IMG/VR virus record: IMGVR_UViG_3300035703_000055
Location: 15,094 to 79,093 of that record
Length of the DNA: 64,000 bases
Reading direction: 5' to 3' (one strand)
Source of the DNA: a virus
Shown here: positions 3,796-51,000 of the stretch, one piece after another
How positions within the stretch are numbered: the first letter of the stretch is position 1
How the letters are laid out: every line of letters begins with the position of its first letter
Notes under the pieces: model-generated
What the model was told of the DNA's origin: nothing
What the model saw: only the letters and a program-made list of their open reading frames with translations
Databases searched by the model: none
Program-made: the position numbers and the translations under genes

Positions 3796-3959
3796 TACTT
3801 GATGTCCTTGTAATACTTCTTTGCTTGCTCTGCCGCCTCGATCTGCGCGCCCGATCGCTTGGGCTCATCTGGTCGCCAGATGTACATGTCGCTGTACAAG
3901 GCCCAGGCCATGAAGACCCAAAGGCCGGCGTAGAAAGCGGTCAAAATTTTCTTGGTCAT
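3795..3959 (-). CDS. Small membrane protein (54 aa)
   Basis: MTKKILTAFYAGLWVFMAWALYS...; GAGGA RBS; coupled at both ends. Confidence 0.6.
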   Translation of the reverse strand: MTKKILTAFYAGLWVFMAWALYSDMYIWRPDEPKRSGAQIEAAEQAKKYYKDIK

Positions 3960-4141
3960 TTCTGTTCCTCAGTTGGGATGCGGGTGCAGTCTTTGTCGGC
4001 GCTGTTTTCGCGGCCGCTCATGATTCCTGTGCGCGGCCCCCATGTCTGGCCTGGCAGGTCAACCCAGCGCAGGCACTTCTGGCAGTTGCTGTCGGGCGCT
4101 TCGGGCTCGCAGCGGTGGTAGTCGTAGGGTAGGGTTCTCAT
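3956..4141 (-). CDS. Cys-rich hypothetical protein
   Basis: MRTLPYDYHRC...CQKCLRW. Confidence 0.6.
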   Translation of the reverse strand: MRTLPYDYHRCEPEAPDSNCQKCLRWVDLPGQTWGPRTGIMSGRENSADKDCTRIPTEEQK

Positions 4142-39700: not shown

Positions 39701-42700
39701 ATGGCACAACAAGACTTCTCTCTTCTCCTGAGCGCCCTGCCGGGCTCCGAGTCACCCGCTCCCGCTGCAAGCCAAGCGCCTGCGCGCAGTGGCGACAACG
39801 TCTCGAATTTCGTGGGCACCTACCTGCCCCTTGCTCAGCGAGTCTCAGAGAAGACAGGCGTCGCGCCTGAAGCCTTGCTTGGCCAGTGGGGCTTGGAGAC
39901 CGGCTGGGGCAAGAGCGTCATCCCGGGCACCAACAACCTGGGCAACATCAAAGACTTTTCCGGCAAGGGCCCGAAAGCCGTCGACAACATGACCAAGTCG
40001 ACTGACGCCTACCGCGCCTACGAAACGGTCGACGATTTTGGTGACGACTTCGCTGGCCTGCTGTCGCGCCGCTACCGCACCGCACTGAACGCCGGCGGCG
40101 ACACCCAGAAGTATTTCAACGAGCTCAAGCGCCTAGGCTACGCCGAAGACCCGAACTACGTGGCTTCTGGCGTCAAGGCCGCCAAGATGGTTTCCAATGT
40201 GCTGGGCACCAGTGCAGGCCAGGCTCCTTCATTCAGCAATGCGCGCCCACTGACGACCGACCGCAGCATGGGCGAGGCCCTGGCCGACAACCTGTTGGGC
40301 GCAGCATCTGGCGTGGTCACCGGCGCAAAGCTGCTGACCGACACTTTTGGTGCAGACAACCGCGTGTCGCAAGCCCTGGGCGACACCACCAAGGCGCTGA
40401 CCGACAGCCAGTCCCAATACCGCAAGGATCAACGCCAAGAGCGCGCCTTCGAAATCAAGAATGCCGAGGCGTCCGGCAGCACCTGGAACGAGATCGTTGC
40501 CAACATCGGCGGCTTCCTCGAGGCGCCTGTTGAGACCACGCTGAATGCCTTGGGCACCAGCGCCCCGACACTGCTGATGGCAGTCATCCCAGGCCTTGGA
40601 CAAGCTCAGGCCGCCCGGTTCATTCTGCAGGGCGCGGCCGGTGCTGCGCAGGGCGTGGGCGCCGCCAAGAGTGGCATCTACGACGCGGTGCGCAACGAGC
40701 TCGAGGCTACAGGCAAGTACACCGCCGATGAGGCCGCCAAGATCGCCGCCGGCGCGCAGGCGTACGACAGCGAGAACGCTGGCAACATCGCCATCAACGG
40801 CTTGCTTGGCCTGGTGGCTGGCACCTCCGGTATTGAATCGGTGGCGGGCCGCCTGGCTGGCCGCAAGGTTGGCCAAGAGACAGCTCGTGGCATTGCTGGC
40901 CGTGCCGGCATGGGTGTGGCCAAAGAATCGCCCGTCGAGGGCGCGCAAGGCGGCTTTGAGCGCTACACATCCAACGTCGCGCTGCAGAACGAAGGCTTCG
41001 ATGTTGACCCCATGCAGGGCGTCGCTGGCCAGGCTGCCGGCGAAGCGATTGCATCCGCTCCTGGTGGTGCCGCATTCGGCGCACTGGATCGCGGCGTCAC
41101 ACCTCCTCCCGCTCCCAACCCCCTGCAGTCCGTTGTTGACCAGGCGCAGAAGCCCGGCAGCGTGCTCTCGCGCGCCGTGGTGTCCACCGGCGTCACTGAT
41201 CAGCCAGTCGTTCCCGTTGAGAACACGATCGTTCCCGGCCAGGAAACAGTCGCCGGCGCACAAACCCAAATCGGGGTTGATCAAACCCAAATCGGGAACA
41301 CTTCCAATCCAACTGGCCCTGGCCCTTCCGCCGATCCGTTTGCCCGCAAGGCAGCCGAGCTCGAGCAAGTCATCCGCAGCCAGGACCTGATTCGCTCCAT
41401 CCGCACCGATGGCGCAGGCCTCAACGGCGTGATGTTCGACCTGCGCACCTTGCGCGACCCGAGCGCTCGCGAAGACATCAAGCAGGCCGCACAGCAGCGC
41501 ATCGAAGAAGAAATCACCTGGGCCCAGACCAACTACAGGCCCAAGCCTGAGATGGACACGGTGCAGGGCACGCCAGGCTTTGAGCCCATCGACCCAGCTC
41601 GCCAGCCCGAGCCTCGTGGCCAAGACGTCATGGGCCTGGACATCGTCCGCGCCACACTGCGTGACCCGCAAATCGGACCCAAGGTCAGCGACACCGATCG
41701 CCAGGAAATCCTGCGCTTCTCGGCTGACGCCCAGAACCCAGGCCTCCCGCTCCAGACACGCCAGCAAGCAGCTCAGCAAGCCATTGAGCTCGTCGGCCGC
41801 TATCGCGCTGCCATGGAGCCCCAGGTTCAGCCCGCAGCGGATTCCGCTTCGCCTGAAGAGCAACAAACTGTTGTCGATCAAACAGCGCCCGTTGCCGATG
41901 AAACAACAGCCCGCACACCCGCCGGCGCTGGCCCAGCCTTGTTCCGCCGCCGCGCCGAGACCATTGGCCAGCTCGTGGCCAACGGCTTTGAGACCGTGCA
42001 GCGCCGCCCAGACGGCTTCTTCCTGACCAACACCAAGACCGGTCAGGAATTCAAGCTGGACAGCATGGCCGACGCGCAGATCGCTCGCAATCAGATCCAG
42101 AAGGCTGTTGACGCCAAAGCCAACACCGCTGCCGCCAGCCCACTGAATGACCTGGCCGAGCCCACGCAAGCTCAGATCGAAGCCGGCAACTACAAGAAGT
42201 CGGACGTCATCGACCTGAACGGCATGAAGATCAAGATCGAGAACCCCAAGGGCTCGGTCCGTCGCGGCACGTCTCCTGACGGCGTCATGTGGGAGACCAA
42301 GATGGCTCACCACTATGGCGAGTTCCAGGGAACCGTCGGTGCTGATGGCGACAAGCTCGATGTGTTTGTGGGTCCACGCCCAGACGGCGACAAGGTCTAC
42401 GTCATCGACCAGGTCAACGAGGACGGCTCCTTCGACGAGCACAAAGTCATGATGGGCTTCACCTCGGAAGAGGCTGCCCGCGCCGGCTACCTGGCCAACT
42501 ACGAAAAAGGCTGGACCGGTCTGGGTGCCATCACCGAGATGCCGGTTGCCGACTTCAAAACCTGGGCCAAGTCACGCCAGGCCAAGAAGCCTGCAGCGAG
42601 CATGGCCAAGCCCGCCGCCGCTGCGCCTGTCGCCGAGACTGCGGCCGCGCCTGCAGCCACTCCTGCCGCCCCAAGCACTCAGGGCCAGTTCGCCACCGCG

Positions 42701-45700
42701 GACGAGGCCAAGGCCTACATCTCCCAACAGCGCCGCACAAACGGCAACGTCTCTGGCCTGCCGCTACAGATGGCTGACGGCACCTTTGGCATCGCCATCA
42801 AGGGCACGCCTCAGTACGCCGAGGCCGAGCGTCAACGTGACGAACGCGATGCCCAGGCAGCCAAGTCTCAGGGCGAGTTCTTCACCGTGCCCGATGGCGG
42901 CAAGCAGAAGAAGCTCAAGCGCGTCAAGAAGTCGGCCATGCCCAAGAAGGCCAGCCCGCGCCGCATGGGCGAGCCTCGCGCACTGACGCAAGACGAAGCC
43001 TCCATGATCGAGCAGGTCGCCGCAGTGCTGGGCAAGAACGTCGTGTTCTTCGAAGCCCAAGGCGATCGCATCGGCGACGGCTTCATCCTGCCGAATGACC
43101 CAAGCACGCTGTACGTGGCGACCGAGACCACAGTGAATCCTCTGGCCGTGTTTGGCCACGAGTTCTTCCACGGCCTGCGCGAGACCAACCCCGAGGCCTG
43201 GAACGCGATTGCAGCCGTTGTGCGCACCCGTGTGGCCGATCCCAAGGGCTTCCGCGAGGACTACTACCGCGGCGGCGACGACAGCCAGCTCAGCGAAGAG
43301 AAGGGTGGCGAGCTCGAGGAGCTGGTCTCCGATCTGGGCGGCAACCTGATGATGGACCCGACTTTCTGGCGCGACGTGTTCGCCAAGATCGGCGAGGACC
43401 ACGGCAAAGACGCCAAGGGCATCATCGCCCGCCTGGCCGCCGCCATCGAAAGCCTGATTGCTCGCGTGATGAAGGCCATGGCCCAGCCTGGCTTCCGCGC
43501 CAACGATTTTGTCAGCGACATCGAGTCCATCCGCAACGCCTACAAAGACGGCCTGGCCGACTTCATCAAGGCCGCCGGCGTCAACAAGGCCTCAATGGGT
43601 GCCGAGGTCGCCAAGGCCAAGCAGGGCCTGCTGAAGACGCCCGATCGCGCCGCACAGCCTGGCTCACTGACCGTTGAGGGCTACCACTTCAGCCAGCAGC
43701 CTCGCGCCGTGTTGACGACCGGCCTGTTTGGCACTGGCCTGAATGGCAGCGCTCGCGACGAAATCATGAACGCCGATGACCAGCGCCTGCGCCAGCGTCT
43801 GTCGTTCTACGTCAACAAAGGCACCGGCATCAACCCCGAGGCTGGTGTTGGCGCCTACGCCCACAAGGCAACGCTCACCAACATCTACGACAGCGACGCC
43901 GATCCACTGCGCCTGCGCACCGGTGATGCCCGCGCATTCGAGTCCAAGGTGCTCGACGCTGGCTTCAGCGGCTACCTGGCCCGAATGGACGGCACACAGT
44001 CCGGCAACGTAGTGCTGCTGGGCAACCAGACCGTCAAGCCCGAGTTGCTGGGCACCGGGCCCGTCAAGGGCGCCAAGGTTGTGCCAGCCCCGCAGCAGCG
44101 AGACCAGGACACTGCCGATCGCCTGATGGCCAGCAAGGATCTGCCGGCCGGCATGCTGAGCCCTCAGCGCTGGTCTGAAGTGCTCATAGCGCAAGACCCT
44201 GAGCTCGCCGCCCAGCTGCTGGACATCGGCGCATTCGAGGGCTCCAAGGGCATGTACAAGGACGAGCTCGCCGCCAAGGTGCGCTCGCTCGGCGGCCAGA
44301 TCCGCAAGTCGGCCGACCGCGCCAAGAGCGAATACGACGCCGTCGTCGCTCAGTACAAAGGCACCGATGCCTGGATGAAGGCGCCCAACGGCGAAGCCAC
44401 CAAGCTGTCCGAGCGTCAGTGGGTGCAGGTCCGCACGCCAAGCTTCAAGAAGTGGTTTGGCGACTGGGAAGCCGCACTCGCCAAAGGTGGCGTCTGGGCT
44501 GTCGAGGATGTGTCCAAGGCTGTTGGCGAGAACGGCGAACCCCTGGTCGTCTACCACGGCTCCGACAAGGGCGGCTTCACTGAGTTTGAGGCACCTGGCG
44601 GCAGCGGCCGAGGCGACCTCGGCATCTGGACCACGCCGGACTACGGCATGGCCAAGAGCTATGTGCGAAAGGGTCGCGCTCGCGACGTCGACCTCTCGAC
44701 GCCCAGCCAATCAGAGCTCGAGGATGCGGGCTACGAGTTTTTCGGCCTAACCGATGACGACACCGAGTCCCCTGGTCAGTACTACGACGAGCCAAATGGC
44801 GACAGAAACGGGCCATTTGAGACGGAGCAGGAGGCTGTCGCAGATGCGGCCACCTCGTTTGAGGGCGAGGCCGGCGTTCAGCCTGGCATCTATGCCCTGT
44901 TCATCAACATCCGCAACCCCAATGAGTCCAACTTTGAGGGCGCGATGTGGAACGGCGAGCGCATCGACCAGTTCCAGGTCCGCGACGAGAACGATGAGCC
45001 CGTCTATGACAAGGATGGCCGCGGGTACTTTGACCGCGACACCGCAGAAGCTCTCGTTGAAGCCAACCCTGGCGCAGAAATGCAGCCGGCTGATCCGAAC
45101 TTCGAGACCACAGACGACGTGGTTCGCGAAGCCCTTCGCAACGACAACGACGGCGCCATCATCCGCGAGGTGATCGACGACGGCGGTGGCCCAGGTTACT
45201 TCCTTGACCCGCAGGACATCTTTGTCGCCTTTGATCCCTCGCAGGTCAAGTCCGCCGACTACAACAACGGCGAGTTCAGCGACAGCACCGGCGATCTGCG
45301 CAAGTCGGCTGATCGCAAGTCACTCAAGCGCGAAGACCCGTTCGAGATGTCGACCCGAATCCCGACAGCCAAGGGTAAGGCTGTCGAGGATCACATGGGC
45401 GATTTGTTGATCTCCGACTTTGGGTCCGGCAAGAGCCAGGAGAGGTGGATCAACACCGTCTCGGGCATCGTCACGCAGTACCCAAACTACCGCGAAGCCG
45501 ACAGCGCGAAGACGCCAGAGAAGAAGCTTGAGCGCCTGATCCGCCAGATGACAGACAACCTGGTGTGGCTGCACAACCAGGTTCCGGCAAGCACACGCAA
45601 GCGCAGCAAGCTCTGGTACGACGGCGCCAACGCCATTGCCGAACGCATGGCCAAGCGCTACGGCATCACCGAGCCTCAGGCTGCCGGCATTCTTGCCGTT

Positions 45701-48019
45701 CTGAGTCCGCAGAAAGACTGGTTCATGAACGTGAGCCTGGCCGACCGCGTGGCCTCGATCATGGCTGAGCGCCAGAAATTTGCCTGGTCTCCACAGATGG
45801 AAGCCACGTCCAAGCGAATCTACGGCGGCGCGCAGTACCAAGTGGCCCTGGATCAGGTTCGCGGCAAAACGCTGGGTGGCCTTGATGACGACTACCTCGC
45901 CTCAATCTGGCTGCGTGTTTACGACCAAACCTACAACAGCCGCTCGTTTGACATTGTTTCGCCCGAAGGCGACATGCTTGCCCGCGCTCAGACCAAAAAG
46001 GGCGTCGACGCCAACGTGGCATGGGGAGGCAACAGCACCATCGCCAAAGCGATCGCAGTCTTCCGTGATGGCGGTGTGGGGCGCATTAGCTCGGAGCTTG
46101 GCACCAAGCACAAGGTTCGCAACTTCTACAACAACATCCTGGTTCCAAACAGCCGCAATGGCCACGTCACGATTGACACGCATGCTGTGGCTGCAGCACT
46201 GCTGCGTCCGCTGTCGGGCAATTCACTCGAGGTCAAGCACAACTTTGGCGGCGCCAGCAACGCAATCTCCGGTCTGCAGGGCACATACGCCCTGTACGAA
46301 GAGGCTTATCGTCGCGCAGCCAAGGAGCTCGGGCTCTTGCCTCGAGAGCTTCAATCGATCACCTGGGAAGCTATTCGCGGGATGTATGTCCCAGGATTCA
46401 AATCGCAGCAGAAAAATGTTGACGGTATTGATAAAATCTGGACTCAATTCAAGAAAGGACGTCTGAGCTATGACGGAGCAAGAGAACTCGCAATCGAAAC
46501 TGCTGGAGGCATTGAAGCCCCTAGCTGGCTCGGACGCAACCCTGGCGTTTATGTTGAAGAACAGCTTGCCGCTGAATCTGACGACGTATCTGGAGATGGA
46601 GTATCCGGAGGGAGCTCCGAAGACATTGTCATCCGAGCAGTTGGCGATGATTCCGGAGCCCCTGAGGCAGGCATCCGCCGCTCAGGAGATCGAGACGGAG
46701 CAGGACTCGATTCGAGCGGAAGCCGTTCGCAGGGAGAAGGTGCGCAAGATGGCGCAGGACGCCTCGCGCCGCTTCCCGGCTACGCCCACGGCAACATCCA
46801 AGGGGCGGCAGGGCCGGACCCGCGGATAGTCGAAGTCGCCGAGAAGTACGCGCGCGACAACGGGATCACGCTTGTCCGTCAGGCCGAGTATGTCGAGGTT
46901 GATCCCGAGCGAGCCGCGCGCATTGCGGATGCCTACCAGGCAATGCCGCATGCGCCTCAAGACCCACGCGTCAAAGAGGCGTTCCGGAACCTGATCAGCC
47001 AGACCCGCGCTCAGTACGACGCGCTCATCGAAGCTGGCTACGAGTTCACGTTCTTCGACTCCAACAGCGACCCATACCAGGGCAACCCCTGGAGTGCCAT
47101 GCGGGACTTGCGCGCCAACAAGCGCATGGCCGTGTACGGCACCTATGACGGCTACGGCACCGAGGGCATCACCGCCAAAGCGGCCGATGACAACCCAATG
47201 CTGGGTGACACCGGTTTGCAGTGGAAAGACCAGGGCGGCCAACTGCGCCCAGTGGCGGCCAACGACCTGTTCCGCGCTGTGCATGACGCTTTTGGCCACG
47301 GCCTCGAGGGCGCAGGCTTCCGGGCCCAGGGCGAAGAAAACGCATGGCAGGCCCATGTGCGCCTCTTCACTGGCTCGGCCGTCGGCGCCATCACGAGCGA
47401 GACCCGCGGCCAAAACAGCTGGCTGAACTACGGCCCGTACGGCGAAACAAACCGCACGGCAAAGCTTGAAGGCACCGTTTTCGCCGAGCAGAAAACCGGT
47501 CTCATGCCAGAGTGGACATGGAGTGAGGGTGTGGCCGCAGATGCCGGCGACATCCGAAAGAGTCCTGCGCGCCGCAATGACCTTATGGCCGCAAAGCTGT
47601 CCCGCGTCGGCATCAAAAGCGCCGACGACTTTTGGAGGACCTGGCGCAATCTGATGGTTGGCACCGCCGGCCCAGATCCACGCCTGTCGGCGATCGGCTC
47701 GACTGATTCACAGGTCCAGAGGGTTGAGGGCCTTGTGCGGGCGCACAGGATTGACGCTGACGACTCCGGCATTCTGAGCGTACTCAAGGGGTACGACACC
47801 AAGCCCGAAGGCGCCAAGACCGGCGGCAACGAGGATGGCGTCGTCACCTCTGCAATCGCAAAGCGAATCTTGGAGAGCGCGGGCGTAAAGCCAACCGTTG
47901 AAAACGCGGTTGCGGCATACGAATCGCTGCCAGGCAGCGCTCAACAAAATGTTGTTGATGCAACATACAATCAACGCATCGCCGCCCTCAAAGATCTCAT
48001 CTCCTGCCTGAAGAAATAA
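39701..48019 (+). CDS. Giant polyvalent internal virion protein (muramidase, InPase-like, HExxH peptidase, two ART-like, glycosylase-like and HDxxGH modules)
   Basis: LGQWGLETGWG..NNLGNIK..GYAEDPNY; IENPKGS..DGDKLDVF; GHEFFH; YHFS; FKKWFGDW..PLVVYHG; WYDGA..LSPQ..KVRNFY..VTIDTH; FRAVHDAFGH. Confidence 0.85.
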   Translation: MAQQDFSLLLSALPGSESPAPAASQAPARSGDNVSNFVGTYLPLAQRVSEKTGVAPEALLGQWGLETGWGKSVIPGTNNLGNIKDFSGKGPKAVDNMTKSTDAYRAYETVDDFGDDFAGLLSRRYRTALNAGGDTQKYFNELKRLGYAEDPNYVASGVKAAKMVSNVLGTSAGQAPSFSNARPLTTDRSMGEALADNLLGAASGVVTGAKLLTDTFGADNRVSQALGDTTKALTDSQSQYRKDQRQERAFEIKNAEASGSTWNEIVANIGGFLEAPVETTLNALGTSAPTLLMAVIPGLGQAQAARFILQGAAGAAQGVGAAKSGIYDAVRNELEATGKYTADEAAKIAAGAQAYDSENAGNIAINGLLGLVAGTSGIESVAGRLAGRKVGQETARGIAGRAGMGVAKESPVEGAQGGFERYTSNVALQNEGFDVDPMQGVAGQAAGEAIASAPGGAAFGALDRGVTPPPAPNPLQSVVDQAQKPGSVLSRAVVSTGVTDQPVVPVENTIVPGQETVAGAQTQIGVDQTQIGNTSNPTGPGPSADPFARKAAELEQVIRSQDLIRSIRTDGAGLNGVMFDLRTLRDPSAREDIKQAAQQRIEEEITWAQTNYRPKPEMDTVQGTPGFEPIDPARQPEPRGQDVMGLDIVRATLRDPQIGPKVSDTDRQEILRFSADAQNPGLPLQTRQQAAQQAIELVGRYRAAMEPQVQPAADSASPEEQQTVVDQTAPVADETTARTPAGAGPALFRRRAETIGQLVANGFETVQRRPDGFFLTNTKTGQEFKLDSMADAQIARNQIQKAVDAKANTAAASPLNDLAEPTQAQIEAGNYKKSDVIDLNGMKIKIENPKGSVRRGTSPDGVMWETKMAHHYGEFQGTVGADGDKLDVFVGPRPDGDKVYVIDQVNEDGSFDEHKVMMGFTSEEAARAGYLANYEKGWTGLGAITEMPVADFKTWAKSRQAKKPAASMAKPAAAAPVAETAAAPAATPAAPSTQGQFATADEAKAYISQQRRTNGNVSGLPLQMADGTFGIAIKGTPQYAEAERQRDERDAQAAKSQGEFFTVPDGGKQKKLKRVKKSAMPKKASPRRMGEPRALTQDEASMIEQVAAVLGKNVVFFEAQGDRIGDGFILPNDPSTLYVATETTVNPLAVFGHEFFHGLRETNPEAWNAIAAVVRTRVADPKGFREDYYRGGDDSQLSEEKGGELEELVSDLGGNLMMDPTFWRDVFAKIGEDHGKDAKGIIARLAAAIESLIARVMKAMAQPGFRANDFVSDIESIRNAYKDGLADFIKAAGVNKASMGAEVAKAKQGLLKTPDRAAQPGSLTVEGYHFSQQPRAVLTTGLFGTGLNGSARDEIMNADDQRLRQRLSFYVNKGTGINPEAGVGAYAHKATLTNIYDSDADPLRLRTGDARAFESKVLDAGFSGYLARMDGTQSGNVVLLGNQTVKPELLGTGPVKGAKVVPAPQQRDQDTADRLMASKDLPAGMLSPQRWSEVLIAQDPELAAQLLDIGAFEGSKGMYKDELAAKVRSLGGQIRKSADRAKSEYDAVVAQYKGTDAWMKAPNGEATKLSERQWVQVRTPSFKKWFGDWEAALAKGGVWAVEDVSKAVGENGEPLVVYHGSDKGGFTEFEAPGGSGRGDLGIWTTPDYGMAKSYVRKGRARDVDLSTPSQSELEDAGYEFFGLTDDDTESPGQYYDEPNGDRNGPFETEQEAVADAATSFEGEAGVQPGIYALFINIRNPNESNFEGAMWNGERIDQFQVRDENDEPVYDKDGRGYFDRDTAEALVEANPGAEMQPADPNFETTDDVVREALRNDNDGAIIREVIDDGGGPGYFLDPQDIFVAFDPSQVKSADYNNGEFSDSTGDLRKSADRKSLKREDPFEMSTRIPTAKGKAVEDHMGDLLISDFGSGKSQERWINTVSGIVTQYPNYREADSAKTPEKKLERLIRQMTDNLVWLHNQVPASTRKRSKLWYDGANAIAERMAKRYGITEPQAAGILAVLSPQKDWFMNVSLADRVASIMAERQKFAWSPQMEATSKRIYGGAQYQVALDQVRGKTLGGLDDDYLASIWLRVYDQTYNSRSFDIVSPEGDMLARAQTKKGVDANVAWGGNSTIAKAIAVFRDGGVGRISSELGTKHKVRNFYNNILVPNSRNGHVTIDTHAVAAALLRPLSGNSLEVKHNFGGASNAISGLQGTYALYEEAYRRAAKELGLLPRELQSITWEAIRGMYVPGFKSQQKNVDGIDKIWTQFKKGRLSYDGARELAIETAGGIEAPSWLGRNPGVYVEEQLAAESDDVSGDGVSGGSSEDIVIRAVGDDSGAPEAGIRRSGDRDGAGLDSSGSRSQGEGAQDGAGRLAPLPGYAHGNIQGAAGPDPRIVEVAEKYARDNGITLVRQAEYVEVDPERAARIADAYQAMPHAPQDPRVKEAFRNLISQTRAQYDALIEAGYEFTFFDSNSDPYQGNPWSAMRDLRANKRMAVYGTYDGYGTEGITAKAADDNPMLGDTGLQWKDQGGQLRPVAANDLFRAVHDAFGHGLEGAGFRAQGEENAWQAHVRLFTGSAVGAITSETRGQNSWLNYGPYGETNRTAKLEGTVFAEQKTGLMPEWTWSEGVAADAGDIRKSPARRNDLMAAKLSRVGIKSADDFWRTWRNLMVGTAGPDPRLSAIGSTDSQVQRVEGLVRAHRIDADDSGILSVLKGYDTKPEGAKTGGNEDGVVTSAIAKRILESAGVKPTVENAVAAYESLPGSAQQNVVDATYNQRIAALKDLISCLKK
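46470..46829 (+). CDS. Putative overprinted small protein in +1 frame of the polyvalent gene
   Basis: Globular-looking DATLAFMLKNSLPLNLTTYLEMEYPEG..EQLAMIPE; AAGGA upstream; host frame is low complexity here. Confidence 0.55.
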   Translation: MTEQENSQSKLLEALKPLAGSDATLAFMLKNSLPLNLTTYLEMEYPEGAPKTLSSEQLAMIPEPLRQASAAQEIETEQDSIRAEAVRREKVRKMAQDASRRFPATPTATSKGRQGRTRG

Positions 48020-48025
48020 AGCACC

Positions 48026-51000
48026 ATGGCCACATTTACCAACTGCCTGCAAATCGTCAACGCAATGCCTGAGCAGGACCAGGACGCACTCCTGACCCGG
48101 CTCGATGAGCTCCAGGCTCAGGGCATGAGCCCAAAAGAGGCGCAGCTGCAGGCGGCCATTGACGTGCTGACGCAGATTGAGCAGGCGGCCGATCCCGATT
48201 CGGGACTGGATAGCGTCGACATCCGCTGGAGCCCCCGACGCGAGCCGGCGCCGGAGAAGACCGTCAAGGCATACAAGCTGTTCCGTGTTGACGCCCGGCA
48301 GCCTGGGAAGCTATTCCCGCTCTTCGTGAATGCCAACGAGCCGATCGACATGGGCGCCTGGCTCGATGCCGATGAGGGGCCAATGCAGGGCGGCAAGGTC
48401 AAAAGCAAGCTCGGCCCGCTCGCTTACCGTCCGGGCTGGCATGCGGGCGATCTGCCAATCGCAACGCACATTGGCGGCAAATCAAACGCAGCGCTTAAGA
48501 AGCCTGACTTGCGCCCGGACAACCAGGTCTGGGCCGAGATTGAGATGGCCGCGGATGTTGACTGGCAAGCCGAGGCCACTAAGCGCGGCACCAACGCCGA
48601 CGGCAAGCTGGTTGCCGTGCGCGCTCACATCACCGACCAGATCCCGGTGAACGGCTTCTACCGCTACAAGACCAACCCCAACATGACGGGAAACTGGCTG
48701 ATTGGCGGCTCAATGAAAGTCAATCGCATCCTGTCCGACGCGGAAGTCGAGCGCATCAATGCCGCCGCCGGCGTAGCGGACCTCCAAAGGGAAGAGCCAT
48801 TTGACGCCAAGAAGTACGGCTTCAAGATGCGCAAGTCTGTCGACCGCCCTCAGTTCTACAGCCAGCTGCAGCGCGCCATTGAAGGCGTGCCTGATCGCCT
48901 GAGCAACATGGGCGCCCTGGGCTGGAAGCAGTGGATCGACTCCAACGGCCCGAAGCTTGGCGTCAAGAAGGAAGAGATCGAGTGGTCCGGCATCAAGGAC
49001 TACCTGGACCTGCAGGGTAAGGCCAAGCTGAGCAAGGATGACTTGTCCGCGTACCTGGATGACTCGGGCGTGAAGATCTCTGAGGTCATGAGTGACGACG
49101 ACAAGCCAAAGCGCACTATGGAGCTGCGCAAAAAGGCTGACGCCGCCATGGACCAGGCCAATGCCGCACTCATGGACGCCACGCCCGAGATCCGTCAGGT
49201 GGACTTCCTGAACCTGCGCAATTGGGCAGAAGACGTCGAGGCTGGCAGCGAGTACGCCGAGGGCAAGATTGCCGAAATGAATCTGACTGACGAGCAGATG
49301 AAAGCTGTCCGTCAGTACGGCCGCGCTACCGCGCTTTACAACAAGGCCTACTCAGCCAACGCGAACGCCGAGGTGCGCAAGTCCAAGTACGGCCAGTACA
49401 CCCTGCCAGGCGGCGAGAACTACCGCGAGCTGCTGATCACGCTGCCGCGCGAAAACCCTGTTGCCGGCGTATCTCCTGTTCAGGCAGCTCGCGTCTTGTA
49501 TGGCAAAGAGTTCTCGCAACTGACTGCTGAACAGCAGGCCGAGGTCAAGCGAAAGATTGACGACGACAAGCCTTCGGCCACCTATATGTCCAGCCATTGG
49601 CAAGAGCCCAACGTCCTCGCCCACATCCGCATCAACGACCGCGCAGATGCGGACGGCAAGCGCGTGCTCTTCGTGGAAGAGGTGCAGTCCGACTGGGGTC
49701 AGGAAGGCAAGAAGAAGGGATTTGCGGGAGATGGTCGCGCCGTACCAGATGGAATTGGTGGATACAAAGTCGTCGACAAGTCTGGTAACGACGTGCTTGG
49801 CAAAGATGGTCAAGTCATCAGTGCGGACACGCCTGCAGAGGCGATGGCCCAGGTGAAGTCCGGAATCCCTTCCGCCCCCTTCGTCACCAAAACCGAAGGC
49901 TGGCTCAACCTCGCACTAAAGCGCATCGCCATGATGGCGGTAGAAGGCGGCTACAACAAGGTGGCCTTCGTCAACGGCGAGCAGTCTGCTGATCGCTACG
50001 ACCTCAGCAAGCAAGTTGAAGAGATCAGGTATCGCCCAAACGCCGATGGCACCTATGACGTCGCTGCCTTTGACATCGGCATGGAGAGGCGGGTGCTGTC
50101 GGAGCCAGGCGTGCCACTGTCAAGAATCGAAGAGTTGGTCGGAAAAGATATTGCAAAGAAAGTTGAAGCCGGCGACGGTAGAGCCGGTAGTGATCGCTGG
50201 AAACTCTTGACTGGCGTTGACCTCAAAGTCGGCGGCGAAGGCATGAAGACCTTCTACGACCAAATCGTGCCCCAGGCGCTCAACAAGCTGCTGCCCAAGC
50301 TCGGCGGCGAGAAGCTGGGCGCTGTTGAGATTGAGGGTCAATTCACCGATGAGCAGAAGCGCCAGGTCAACGACGCATACGGACGCGGCACTCGCGATGA
50401 TGTGGAGCGCGTCAAGGGCATGAAGCCCGGCTTTATGCAGCAACCCGGCTTCGATGTCACCGACAAGATGCGCGAGACCGTTGGCGCAGGCCTGCCGCTG
50501 TTCAGCCGTGATCGCCAGGCGCCCGATACGCCTGCATTCCGCAAGTGGTTCGGCGACAGCAAGGTAGTGGACGCCAAAGGCAAGCCACTCGTTGTGTACC
50601 ACGGCACTGTCAAGAGCTTCGATGAATTTAACGCGGACGCCGAGCCATACAGCTACGAGAGCGACCGGGGTAAGCAATTCTTCCTGGACAACCCGCAAGG
50701 CGCGAGCGACTACGCGATTGGCACATCCGACGCCTATGGTGGCAACGCCAATGTTATGCCGGTTTATTTGCGCATGGAGAACCCGCGCATTGAGGAAGTT
50801 GACGGCCCGCCATCCGAGTGGTGGGACAGCAACGCCGACGCCCTTTACTGGCAGATGGACGTGGTCGACGGTGGCCACGACGGGCTGATTGTTCGCGGCG
50901 ACGGCGAGACCATGTATGTCACAGCCAATCCCGCTCAGATCAAATCGGCAACCGGAAACCGGGGCACGTTCGACGCGACCAACCCTGACATCCGCAAGGC

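Follow-up and report, generated by a model that had tools for sequence, protein, structure and literature searches.

A small gene overprinted on a linker of a giant phage polyvalent-protein gene and its predicted glycosylase-like partner module

The stretch of viral DNA analysed here (64,000 nucleotides; the window) carries a giant polyvalent-protein gene that encloses a second, much smaller gene on the same strand. Comparison across related genomes confirms that this embedded +1-frame ORF is a real gene rather than a shadow ORF of high-GC DNA. In the explanation that we consider quite probable as a whole, the embedded gene encodes a partner, and likely a keeper or inhibitor, of the module encoded just upstream, and the overlap is kept because the giant frame must be read through it. 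The features concerned are collected in Table 1.

Table 1. Features in and around the overlap (window positions).
Feature	Position	Strand	Remarks
Giant polyvalent-protein gene, 2772 aa, host frame	39701..48019	+	ORF list, Pfam
DUF7178 module, aa 1880-2280	45338..46540	+	Pfam E 1.4e-31; predicted HhH-GPD N-glycosylase-like fold
Shine-Dalgarno-like AAGAAAGGA	46451..46459	+	ATG 10 nt downstream
Small +1-frame ORF	46470..46829	+	119 aa, ATG start; inside the 2772-aa ORF 39701..48019
Small-gene conserved core, aa 1-68	46470..46673	+	dual-coding zone; tblastn and HMM matches, wobble phase switch
Main-frame G/D/S/E-rich linker	46530..46672	+	residues set by +1 frame, frame kept open
Main-frame junction motif IRRSGDR	46673..46693	+	begins exactly at the family small gene's normal stop
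Small-ORF C-terminal tail, aa 69-119, then TAG	46674..46829	+	clade-specific; alignment, substitution pattern
Next giant-protein module	46829..48016	+	no Pfam family; conserved in L001-L005 and L018

Conservation and dual coding of the small gene

A sequence-only reading of this DNA had proposed a hidden gene over the full length of the small ORF. The translation from its ATG reproduces the reported string exactly, and the upstream AAGAAAGGA described in that reading is present, about 10 nt before the start. Residues 1-68 proved to be conserved, whereas residues 69-119 are a run-on tail that owes its apparent conservation to the main frame. The conserved part belongs to a family of proteins of 60-65 aa with the core motif LPxTRENYLGLAYPEGxP, and the family's invariant or near-invariant residues (G20, D22, P34, Y40, Y45, P46, G48, P50 and P62) are intact in the window copy. 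The family's ATG is conserved and its usual stop falls directly after 'EIRQA'; in the alignment, the window clade has lost this stop after 'RQA' and added a tail of 51 unconserved residues. The AlphaFold2 model of the small protein reaches pLDDT 85-91 over residues 10-70.

The small gene is tightly linked to the DUF7178 module. Of 80 related viral loci, 79 have a P0001 match directly behind the module, with E-values of 1e-35 to 1e-18 in close relatives and about 1e-6 in distant ones, and a reverse search by the small-protein motif finds the module immediately upstream in all 65 loci, in agreement with the earlier proposal that the two travel together. The tBLASTn and HMM searches suggested in that proposal recover homologues in the same frame and place, adjoining or overlapping the module. 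Among bacterial and MAG loci, 12 of 19 carry the small gene, 11 of them in the +1 frame; across all loci the single exception to this frame is the genome locus L167, where it is +2. A profile search yields 538 homologues of 60-65 aa that are already called (E-values 1e-20 down to 1e-27 among the matches listed), all labelled hypothetical proteins and none bearing a family name. The idea that gene callers miss the gene thus holds for embedded copies, such as the unannotated one in GenBank OP947163, but not for these called homologues. The small protein has no match among Pfam, PHROG and PDB families. The small gene is absent or undetectable beside the most divergent DUF7178 modules: Roseobacter phage CRP-738, phage zth2-2 and 7 of the 19 genome loci encode DUF7178 proteins with no detectable small ORF, so DUF7178 can exist without the small protein, or its partner has there diverged past detection. 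That the small protein is the cognate partner of the module is well supported.

Relatives show three layouts of the pair: separated, overlapping by 22 nt and fully embedded. The small gene lies whole within the larger ORF, in a different frame of the same strand, in the window, in 46 class-B loci and in L001-L005. In the low-GC relatives L052, L060 and L077 the module ORF ends 22 nt after the small ATG, and in L138 the small gene stands separately, about 280 nt downstream of the module stop, where neither of the other two frames is open. The neighbours of the pair in low-GC relatives are non-structural genes, with a RusA-like resolvase on one side and the terminase on the other.

Judged from sequence, the gene has start signals of its own, a conserved ATG and a Shine-Dalgarno element. 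The four-nucleotide core of this element occurs in 51 of 54 unique family start contexts and the five-nucleotide core in 26 of 54, compared with 1.8% of other ATGs at the same loci. The window clade's version is weak (AAAGGA, 10-nt spacer), weaker than those of other clades. A +1-frame TGA at 46464-46466 stands one codon before the small ATG in the window clade, and a stop codon directly precedes the ATG in low-GC relatives; both ATG and preceding stop are kept in all six window-clade members, which come from different metagenomes.

Selection on both frames can be read from base composition and substitutions. Over 46421-46840, main-frame GC3 falls to 0.36-0.62 against a gene mean of 0.75, while the third position of the +1 frame reaches 0.64-0.84; no other such anomaly in the two giant genes is as long or as strong. 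Across 38 unique embedded relatives, diversity upstream of the overlap is highest at main-frame position 3 (0.43-0.52), and inside the overlap it is highest at +1-frame position 3 (0.37-0.44 versus 0.05-0.19). Substitutions silent in the +1 frame and replacing in the main frame relate to the reverse class as 9636:2768 in the overlap and as 4812:25435 upstream; the corresponding ratios within the window's own clade are 122:86 and 97:387. In each of 10 pairs compared within that clade, conservation is higher for the +1-frame protein than for the main frame. Over the tail, at 46674-46829, the pattern returns to main-frame dominance. When codons of the small protein are resampled synonymously, the main frame stays open with probability 0.044 in the window, 0-0.09 in most relatives and 0-0.003 in genomes of GC 0.42; it is nonetheless open in 46 of 46 embedded loci and in all six members of the window clade. 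The +1 frame is thus selected by the evidence of the wobble switch and substitution classes, and the main frame by its improbable openness. Because the main frame is open more often than chance allows, this comparative evidence shows that the stretch under the conserved core is truly dual-coded over the linker.

The main-frame reading across the small ORF is EEQLAAESDDVSGDGVSGGSSED, and the wobble switch, the substitution classes and the lower main-frame identity all bear out the original impression of a linker constrained by a second frame. The surrounding giant ORF has Pfam matches to Glucosaminidase (residues 43-156), InPase (823-957), ART-PolyVal (1610-1859) and DUF7178 (from 1941); several conflict-related domains, signature ones among them, lie on one polypeptide, as in polyvalent proteins. 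Its neighbours suggest that it may be a virion protein. Motifs of the junction type, found with the expression [ILM]R[KR]S..R, occur at 44300, 45296, 46673, 47552, 48221, 48827 and 50990, and in other relatives related tails of the form [VIL][KS]RGRxAP come after the small gene's stop. At 46740-46829 the main frame encodes the next module's conserved N-terminus. A codon-by-codon reading finds no in-frame ATG, GTG or TTG near the start of that module, so it can be made only by read-through of the overlap. The gene that follows the giant gene matches DarB-like antirestriction PHROGs.

Three readings would deny the window an independent, working small gene. In one, the ORF is a chance shadow whose protein-like look and GC3 shift come from G/D/E/A-rich linker codons of the main frame; the giant gene does carry +1-frame ORFs of 264, 228, 153 and 139 aa, so that length alone is not beyond chance, and milder GC3 shifts lie over Ala/Pro/Gly-rich stretches at 40961-41170, 41741-41980 and 49676-49855. 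The comparative data refute this reading, which we regard as scarcely conceivable: across genomes spanning 33-68% GC the frame and the amino-acid sequence are kept while silent sites vary, the start and stop do not move, and the gene also occurs free-standing. In the second reading, ribosomes would leave the giant frame by a programmed +1 frameshift and make a shortened giant protein that ends in a different C-terminal domain. Such a shift is geometrically possible since about 20 conserved codons overlap in every architecture, yet it is very improbable given the stop codons just before the ATG, the conserved ATG and Shine-Dalgarno element, the gene past the module stop in L138, the +2 frame in L167 and the lack of any shared slippery motif seen. 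It is also improbable, if somewhat less so, that a gene real in relatives is a decaying relic here, left after the module fused to the next so that only the linker matters. The lost family stop and unconserved tail, the weaker Shine-Dalgarno element and a within-clade selection signal (122:86) weaker than that of the larger clade would fit such decay; against it, the family's key residues are all intact, the ATG and its preceding stop persist across the six clade members, the +1 frame is the more conserved in every within-clade pair, and the substitution ratio runs opposite to that of the upstream control.

The upstream module and the predicted complex

The module, which contains WYDGA, LSPQ, KVRNFY and VTIDTH, had been called HhH-glycosylase-like from its sequence, and structural modelling agrees. 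In a wide VIA search with its AlphaFold2 model (pLDDT 82, pTM 0.85), the best 20 among 48,161 chains consist entirely of HhH-GPD or QNG1 proteins, led by the Tm1821 8-oxoG glycosylase (Z 8.7, rmsd 3.8, 184 of 209 residues aligned) and followed by QNG1 (Z 8.3), then AGOG, Mag1, MagIII, EndoIII, MutY and OGG1. These Z values, 8.7-4.8 over the top 20 with unrelated rows beginning at 4.1, are middling for a helical model. Foldseek returned no matches with the same model, Pfam matched DUF7178 alone even at E-values up to 10, and no glycosylase was among the hits to PDB sequences.

Across 23 relatives the module has 113 invariant columns, including L254, G255, K259, P270, D280 and T281. Helices 247-254 and 258-268 flank the invariant L-G-x-K hairpin (L254, G255, H258 and K259), which is followed by P270, G275, the invariant D280 and T281, and a helix at 281-288; we take the region of the invariant Asp to resemble the 'VDTH' of EndoIII. 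The model thus shows an HhH-GPD-like fold class with a candidate catalytic Asp. The module shares its predicted fold with the HhH-GPD enzymes (EndoIII/Nth, MutY, OGG, AGOG and MagIII) and QNG1 (DUF2419), and has the hairpin, P/G loop and invariant Asp in the expected order; it differs in having no sequence-level match to any of them and in being twice the size of minimal HhH-GPD enzymes. Since QNG1 ties with the DNA glycosylases, the module could act on a DNA base or on a free nucleotide.

Co-prediction, which the sequence-only reading had suggested as a check, places the small protein on the module with a score of 0.87, against 0.00 for the best of three controls. Of 80 solved complexes, 58 reach the mark for this score, as do 2 of 110 mismatched pairs; these counts apply only roughly here because our own alignments were used. 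The runs share at least 93% of contacts, with a partner pLDDT of at least 85. The small protein is predicted to bind on the side of the module where the helix-hairpin-helix and the invariant Asp lie, through residues that include P124, Q125, R193, K237, G255, K259, D280, T281, S293 and G294 on the module and G20, D22, Y45 and P46 on its own side; conservation at the interface does not significantly exceed that of the remainder of this very conserved fold (p 0.09 and 0.23). The small family is mostly acidic (54 members; median pI 4.4, median net charge -6), as is the window core (pI 4.5), but the cores of the close relatives L002, L003 and L005 are basic (pI 9.6-10.2), which weakens a general DNA-mimic reading.

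Mechanism and comparison with known systems

We propose that ribosomes would start at the small gene's own Shine-Dalgarno element and ATG within the giant gene and produce a small helical protein, conserved over residues 1-68 and acidic in most relatives. This protein would be the cognate partner of the DUF7178 HhH-GPD-type N-glycosylase-like domain just upstream and may act in the producing cell as its stoichiometric keeper or inhibitor, in the way that immunity proteins restrain toxin domains. The giant frame would have to remain free of stops over the small gene if the junction motif and the next module are to be translated, and for this reason the stretch may now be a disordered linker, with a sequence that arises as a by-product of the small gene. 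The predicted placement makes an inhibitor or 'immunity' protein plausible; inhibition, and any timing of it relative to virion assembly, we infer. More tentatively, and with somewhat less than even confidence, the arrangement could be a nested effector-immunity cassette, in which a phage-delivered HhH-GPD-type effector carries its own inhibitor in a second frame over the linker. In that case overprinting would persist because translation of the polyprotein has to cross the inhibitor gene before it arrives at the junction signal and next module.

The small protein might instead be a real partner of another kind, namely an obligatory subunit, an activator, an active-site lid or a folding or packaging chaperone. 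The same linkage and complex prediction apply to such roles, the basic cores of L002, L003 and L005 are unlike DNA mimicry, and the position of the low-GC pair among non-structural genes makes the logic of immunity during assembly less compelling. To our knowledge, however, HhH-GPD enzymes function as one chain with no small subunit; the predicted placement covers the hairpin and the invariant Asp, where substrate is expected; and distant DUF7178 proteins that lack the small protein are easier to reconcile with a dispensable regulator than with a required subunit. We therefore consider a subunit, activator or chaperone unlikely, though a good deal less remote than a relic, and retain a keeper or inhibitor as the preferred role.

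The nearest architectural parallel is the lambda Rz/Rz1 pair of two-component spanin genes, known in embedded, overlapped and separated architectures (PMC6139136, PMC5295617). There, too, a small gene with its own start lies wholly within a larger one in the +1 frame, the products form a complex (here a predicted one), and both pairs occur in all three layouts across relatives. The functions are unrelated, the small gene here lacking membrane or lipoprotein signals; the host frame is here a low-complexity linker of a multi-domain protein but in Rz a functional domain, and the enclosing gene can here be a polyvalent gene of 8.3 kb.

In its domains the giant gene resembles the polyvalent proteins of phages and conjugative elements described by Iyer et al. 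2017 (PMC5512222), as it carries a glucosaminidase besides the hallmark InPase and ART-PolyVal; that paper uses none of the words 'overlapping', 'frameshift' and 'glycosylase' and mentions 'immunity' only in other contexts. As in the effector-immunity pairs of polymorphic toxins, a small cognate protein, predicted to bind, comes right after an enzymatic module, but its gene is nested in the effector polyprotein instead of following it. Ugi, phi29 p56 and SAUGI, DNA-mimic inhibitors of uracil-DNA glycosylase (PMC3711442, PMC3902945), are likewise phage-borne, very small (56-110 aa) and mostly acidic, and sit on the nucleic-acid-binding face of an N-glycosylase-fold enzyme, as is predicted here. 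They block host family-1 UDG, whereas the prediction here points to an HhH-GPD-like module of the phage itself, and some members of the small family are basic. Profile, Foldseek and VIA searches give no PDB match between the small protein and known inhibitors, which has no bearing on mechanism because those inhibitors are mutually unrelated.

Implications for phage biology

These results add to phage biology a widespread, unnamed small-protein family with hundreds of database members, whose genomes span 33-68% GC and come from freshwater, marine, soil and subsurface samples, and they document long-lived dual coding in a clean case with statistical support. The series of embedded, overlapped and separated layouts offers a second system besides the spanins in which to study how overprinting originates and persists. 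DUF7178 gains a predicted HhH-GPD-like fold, a candidate catalytic Asp and a predicted regulator. We know of no protein inhibitor of HhH-GPD-type enzymes. If inhibition is true, the small protein would be a natural inhibitor of such an enzyme, the first as far as we know, and injected multi-effector proteins would need self-protection, like bacterial polymorphic toxins; if the cassette is true, it would be the first immunity-like gene inside a polyvalent-protein gene of which we are aware. For phage annotation, the linkers of giant polyvalent genes can hide functional genes, and the gene and module described here look like an enzyme-plus-keeper pair that standard annotation overlooks.

The +1-frame ORF and its relatives

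The window comprises the final 64 kb of an IMG/VR virus record of 79 kb. The small ORF lies inside a giant polyvalent-protein gene in a neighbourhood of genes for tail fibres and internal virion proteins; next comes a second giant gene, encoding a 1900-aa DarB-like protein. A sequence check bears out the particulars of the sequence-only reading: the translation of the ORF is identical to the string given there, AAGAAAGGA lies 10 nt 5' of the ATG exactly as stated, and both the G/D/S/E-rich stretch of the main frame (that of the giant gene) and the motifs of the upstream module match its text exactly. The length of the ORF is no evidence for a gene, as the giant gene (60% GC) contains other +1-frame ORFs of 264, 228, 153 and 139 aa. 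Third-position composition over the ORF is suggestive of coding. At 46421-46840, third-position GC is 0.36-0.62 in the main frame (gene mean 0.75) and 0.64-0.84 in the +1 frame, the longest and strongest anomaly of its kind in both giant genes. We rejected this shift as stand-alone proof of a gene because the G-starting codons of Gly/Asp/Glu/Ala linkers may cause part of it. Milder shifts towards the +1 frame in Ala/Pro/Gly-rich stretches are probably compositional. A crude sigma-70 scan of 45900-47000 found no internal promoter.

Features of the two giant genes, in window positions
Feature	Position	Strand	Description
Giant polyvalent-protein gene	39701..48019	+	2772 aa; Pfam Glucosaminidase, InPase, ART-PolyVal, DUF7178
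DUF7178 module	45338..46540	+	giant-protein aa 1880-2280
Small ORF	46470..46829	+	ATG start, overlapped by a main-frame Tyr codon; 119 aa, +1 frame of giant gene
Core of small protein	46470-46673		residues 1-68
Last module of giant protein	46829-48016		motifs HDAFGH and EENAWQAH; no Pfam family
Motif [ILM]-R-[KRW]-[SA]-x-x-R, first giant gene	44300, 45296, 46673, 47552	+	apparent module borders
Motif [ILM]-R-[KRW]-[SA]-x-x-R, second giant gene	48221, 48827, 50990	+	apparent module borders
264-aa ORF	40596-41390		+1 frame
Milder third-position GC shifts	40961-41170, 41741-41980, 49676-49855		to +1 frame; Ala/Pro/Gly-rich

Viral contigs searched with the module and its surroundings yielded 80 loci, 79 of which match the small protein in the +1 frame directly behind the module, with E-values of 1e-35 to 1e-18 in five close relatives and about 1e-6 where the modules are 47-51% identical. 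The reverse search, using the small protein's own motif, returned 65 viral loci, all 65 with the module immediately upstream; homologues accompanying the module, on which the sequence-only reading had staked its hidden gene, were thus found from both directions. The aligned products form a family of 60-65 aa (consensus ...D.VL.LLKK..LP.TRENYLGLAYPEG.P...LP.EIR.A) with a conserved ATG and a stop codon immediately after 'RQA'. Of 54 distinct start contexts, 51 have an SD core ahead of the ATG; a 5-mer SD core occurs in 26 of the 54, versus 1.8% of other ATGs at the same loci. Among bacterial and MAG genomes, the small gene is found at 12 of 19 module-bearing loci (+1 frame in 11), and a +2-frame copy exists.

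Public protein data contain 538 called homologues; all source-named ones are hypothetical proteins and none carries a Pfam domain. Searches of Pfam and PHROGs and a profile search of PDB found no match to the small protein, and proteins of 210-2000 aa included no longer fused form, which is weak evidence. Distant DUF7178 proteins (phages CRP-738 and zth2-2, and 7 of the 19 genome loci) have no detectable partner. Among GenBank phages, tblastn with the single small protein gave chance matches only; a profile search picked up OP947163, with a weak homologue in the +1 frame, but neither CRP-738 nor zth2-2. Reads from four metagenome runs yielded only contigs from related phages. In the OP947163 record (OP947163.1, Rhodobacteraceae phage LS06-2018-MD07; our locus L083), the DUF7178 module sits in a 9.3-kb gene annotated 'methyltransferase', and the homologue behind it (3950-4130, HMM E 0.002) overlies a low-complexity main-frame linker and carries no annotation.

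Gene layouts and selection on two frames

The small gene occurs in embedded, overlapped and separated layouts, the same series as is shown by spanin genes (PMC6139136). In low-GC relatives (L040, L052, L060, L077 and others) the module ORF ends 22 nt past the small gene's ATG, an ordinary overlapping gene pair. At locus L138 the small gene lies approximately 280 nt 3' of the module gene's stop, with both other frames closed. At 46 loci (GC 0.42-0.67) the module ORF continues for 78 codons across the whole small gene and stops exactly 38 nt 3' of its stop. In the window, its close relatives L001-L005, loci L013, L021, L086, L089, L091, L111 and L141, and phage OP947163, the main frame instead continues into further modules. 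The L138 module (L138:22-2202) carries an in-frame C-terminal fusion to a domain that on visual inspection resembles RelA/SpoT nucleotidyltransferases, and the small-protein homologue there (L138:2393-2947) forms the N-terminus of a longer separate protein of about 150 aa.

Nucleotide diversity in 38 unique embedded sequences switches frame at the small gene. Upstream, it peaks at main-frame position 3 (0.43-0.52 versus 0.02-0.22 at positions 1 and 2); between +60 and +200 of the small gene it is instead highest at +1-frame position 3 (0.37-0.44) and lowest at main-frame position 3 (0.05-0.19), and past the stop the main-frame pattern resumes. Similarly, overlap differences that are silent in the +1 frame and replacing in the main frame outnumber the reverse class by 9636:2768, compared with 4812:25435 in the upstream control and a neutral expectation of about 0.8:1. 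Within the window clade (the window and its closest relatives) the same counts are 122:86 and 97:387, all 10 pairs show higher conservation of the +1-frame protein than of the main-frame peptide, and the wobble switch spans 46530-46770, with the main frame again dominant beyond 46710. Residues 69-119 of the window's protein are a run-on from loss of the family's stop, and the partial conservation of this tail, L018 included, stems from the conserved main-frame start of the next module.

The main frame is maintained across the small gene as well. When the small protein was held fixed and synonymous codons were resampled, the main frame stayed open in 2-9% of trials for most relatives, 0-0.3% for genomes of GC 0.42 and 4.4% for the window; it is actually open in every embedded locus. 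Because no in-frame start codon lies close to the start of the window's next module, ribosomes must translate through the linker to reach it. The linker is unconstrained in its amino-acid sequence, and the small gene exploits this latitude.

At the very point where the core of the small gene ends, a conserved signal appears in the main frame. In the window it is IRRSGDR, which belongs to a set of seven [ILM]R[KR]S..R motifs found at module borders in the two giant genes. Other relatives have [VIL][KS]RGRxAP in the same place, either close to the C-terminus or ahead of the next module, and related tails terminate their stand-alone DUF7178 proteins. The recurring border motif may signal processing or packaging. 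The giant protein's last module turns up in L018 after a different upstream module and is therefore an independent shuffling unit; an HExxH (HEFFH) module lies upstream in the giant protein.

These data leave little doubt that the small ORF is a real gene, and a chance ORF is excluded. A +1 frameshift product of the giant gene is unlikely, given the stop codon just before the small gene's ATG, the conserved SD and the existence of separated and +2-frame copies. It is also unlikely that the gene is a relic in the window's phage, where the family residues are intact and selection is detectable within the window clade.

Predicted fold, complex and function

The upstream module belongs to DUF7178, a virus-only family for which a literature search found no publications. 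Sequence searches of PDB and Pfam returned only spurious coiled-coil or unrelated matches and no glycosylase family, and Foldseek against PDB gave no match. Exhaustive structural comparison of its AF2 model (pLDDT 82, pTM 0.85) returned HhH-GPD-type enzymes as all of the best 20 chains, with unrelated folds from Z 4.1, and the predicted fold thereby agrees with the HhH-glycosylase-like module proposed in the sequence-only reading. The best match is the Tm1821 8-oxoguanine glycosylase (Z 8.7, rmsd 3.8, 184 residues), followed by the queuosine hydrolase QNG1 (Z 8.3) and then AGOG, Mag1, MagIII, EndoIII, MutY and OGG1. The invariant residues run helix-hairpin(L-G-x-K)-helix, P/G loop, invariant Asp, helix, the order that defines the HhH-GPD superfamily, and we take 'TIDTH' to resemble the catalytic 'VDTH' of EndoIII. 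The substrate may be either a DNA base or a nucleotide.

The small protein is predicted as four short helices (pLDDT 85-91 over residues 10-70), with a long basic helix after the core in the window clade, and is acidic in most members (median pI 4.4). Foldseek against PDB found no match, ESM Atlas no usable one, and a wide structural search matched only the tail helix, to coiled coils. In controlled co-prediction, module and small protein scored 0.87, versus 0.00 for the best of three controls, which favours the pairing envisaged earlier; solved complexes reach this mark in 58 of 80 cases and mismatched pairs in 2 of 110, counts that are rough because our own alignments were used. At least 93% of contacts are shared between runs, and small-protein pLDDT is at least 85. 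The predicted interface involves the module's hairpin (G255, K259), invariant D280, T281, P124 and Q125 of LSPQKDW, R193, K237, S293 and G294 (module numbering), and G20, D22, Y45 and P46 of the small protein. Interface residues show no significant enrichment in conservation relative to the remainder of the fold, which is itself highly conserved.

Taken together, the small ORF is probably an embedded gene whose product is a cognate partner for the glycosylase-like module. As to what such a partner does, we tentatively favour an inhibitor or immunity-like keeper, a reading backed by its modelled placement over the presumed substrate face, its acidity and the effector-then-small-gene order; the main rival, an obligatory subunit or chaperone of the module, seems somewhat less likely.

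There are precedents for embedded genes, for effector-immunity pairs and for glycosylase inhibitors. We found no description, in the literature searched, of their combination here: a conserved partner gene that is overprinted on a polyvalent-protein linker and linked to an HhH-GPD-like module not yet characterised. Prophage-like loci that pair the module with the small gene also occur in the assembled genomes of two cultured strains, Pseudofulvimonas gallinarii DSM 21944 (L150) and Jannaschia seohaensis DSM 25227 (L151), which may provide experimental entry points.
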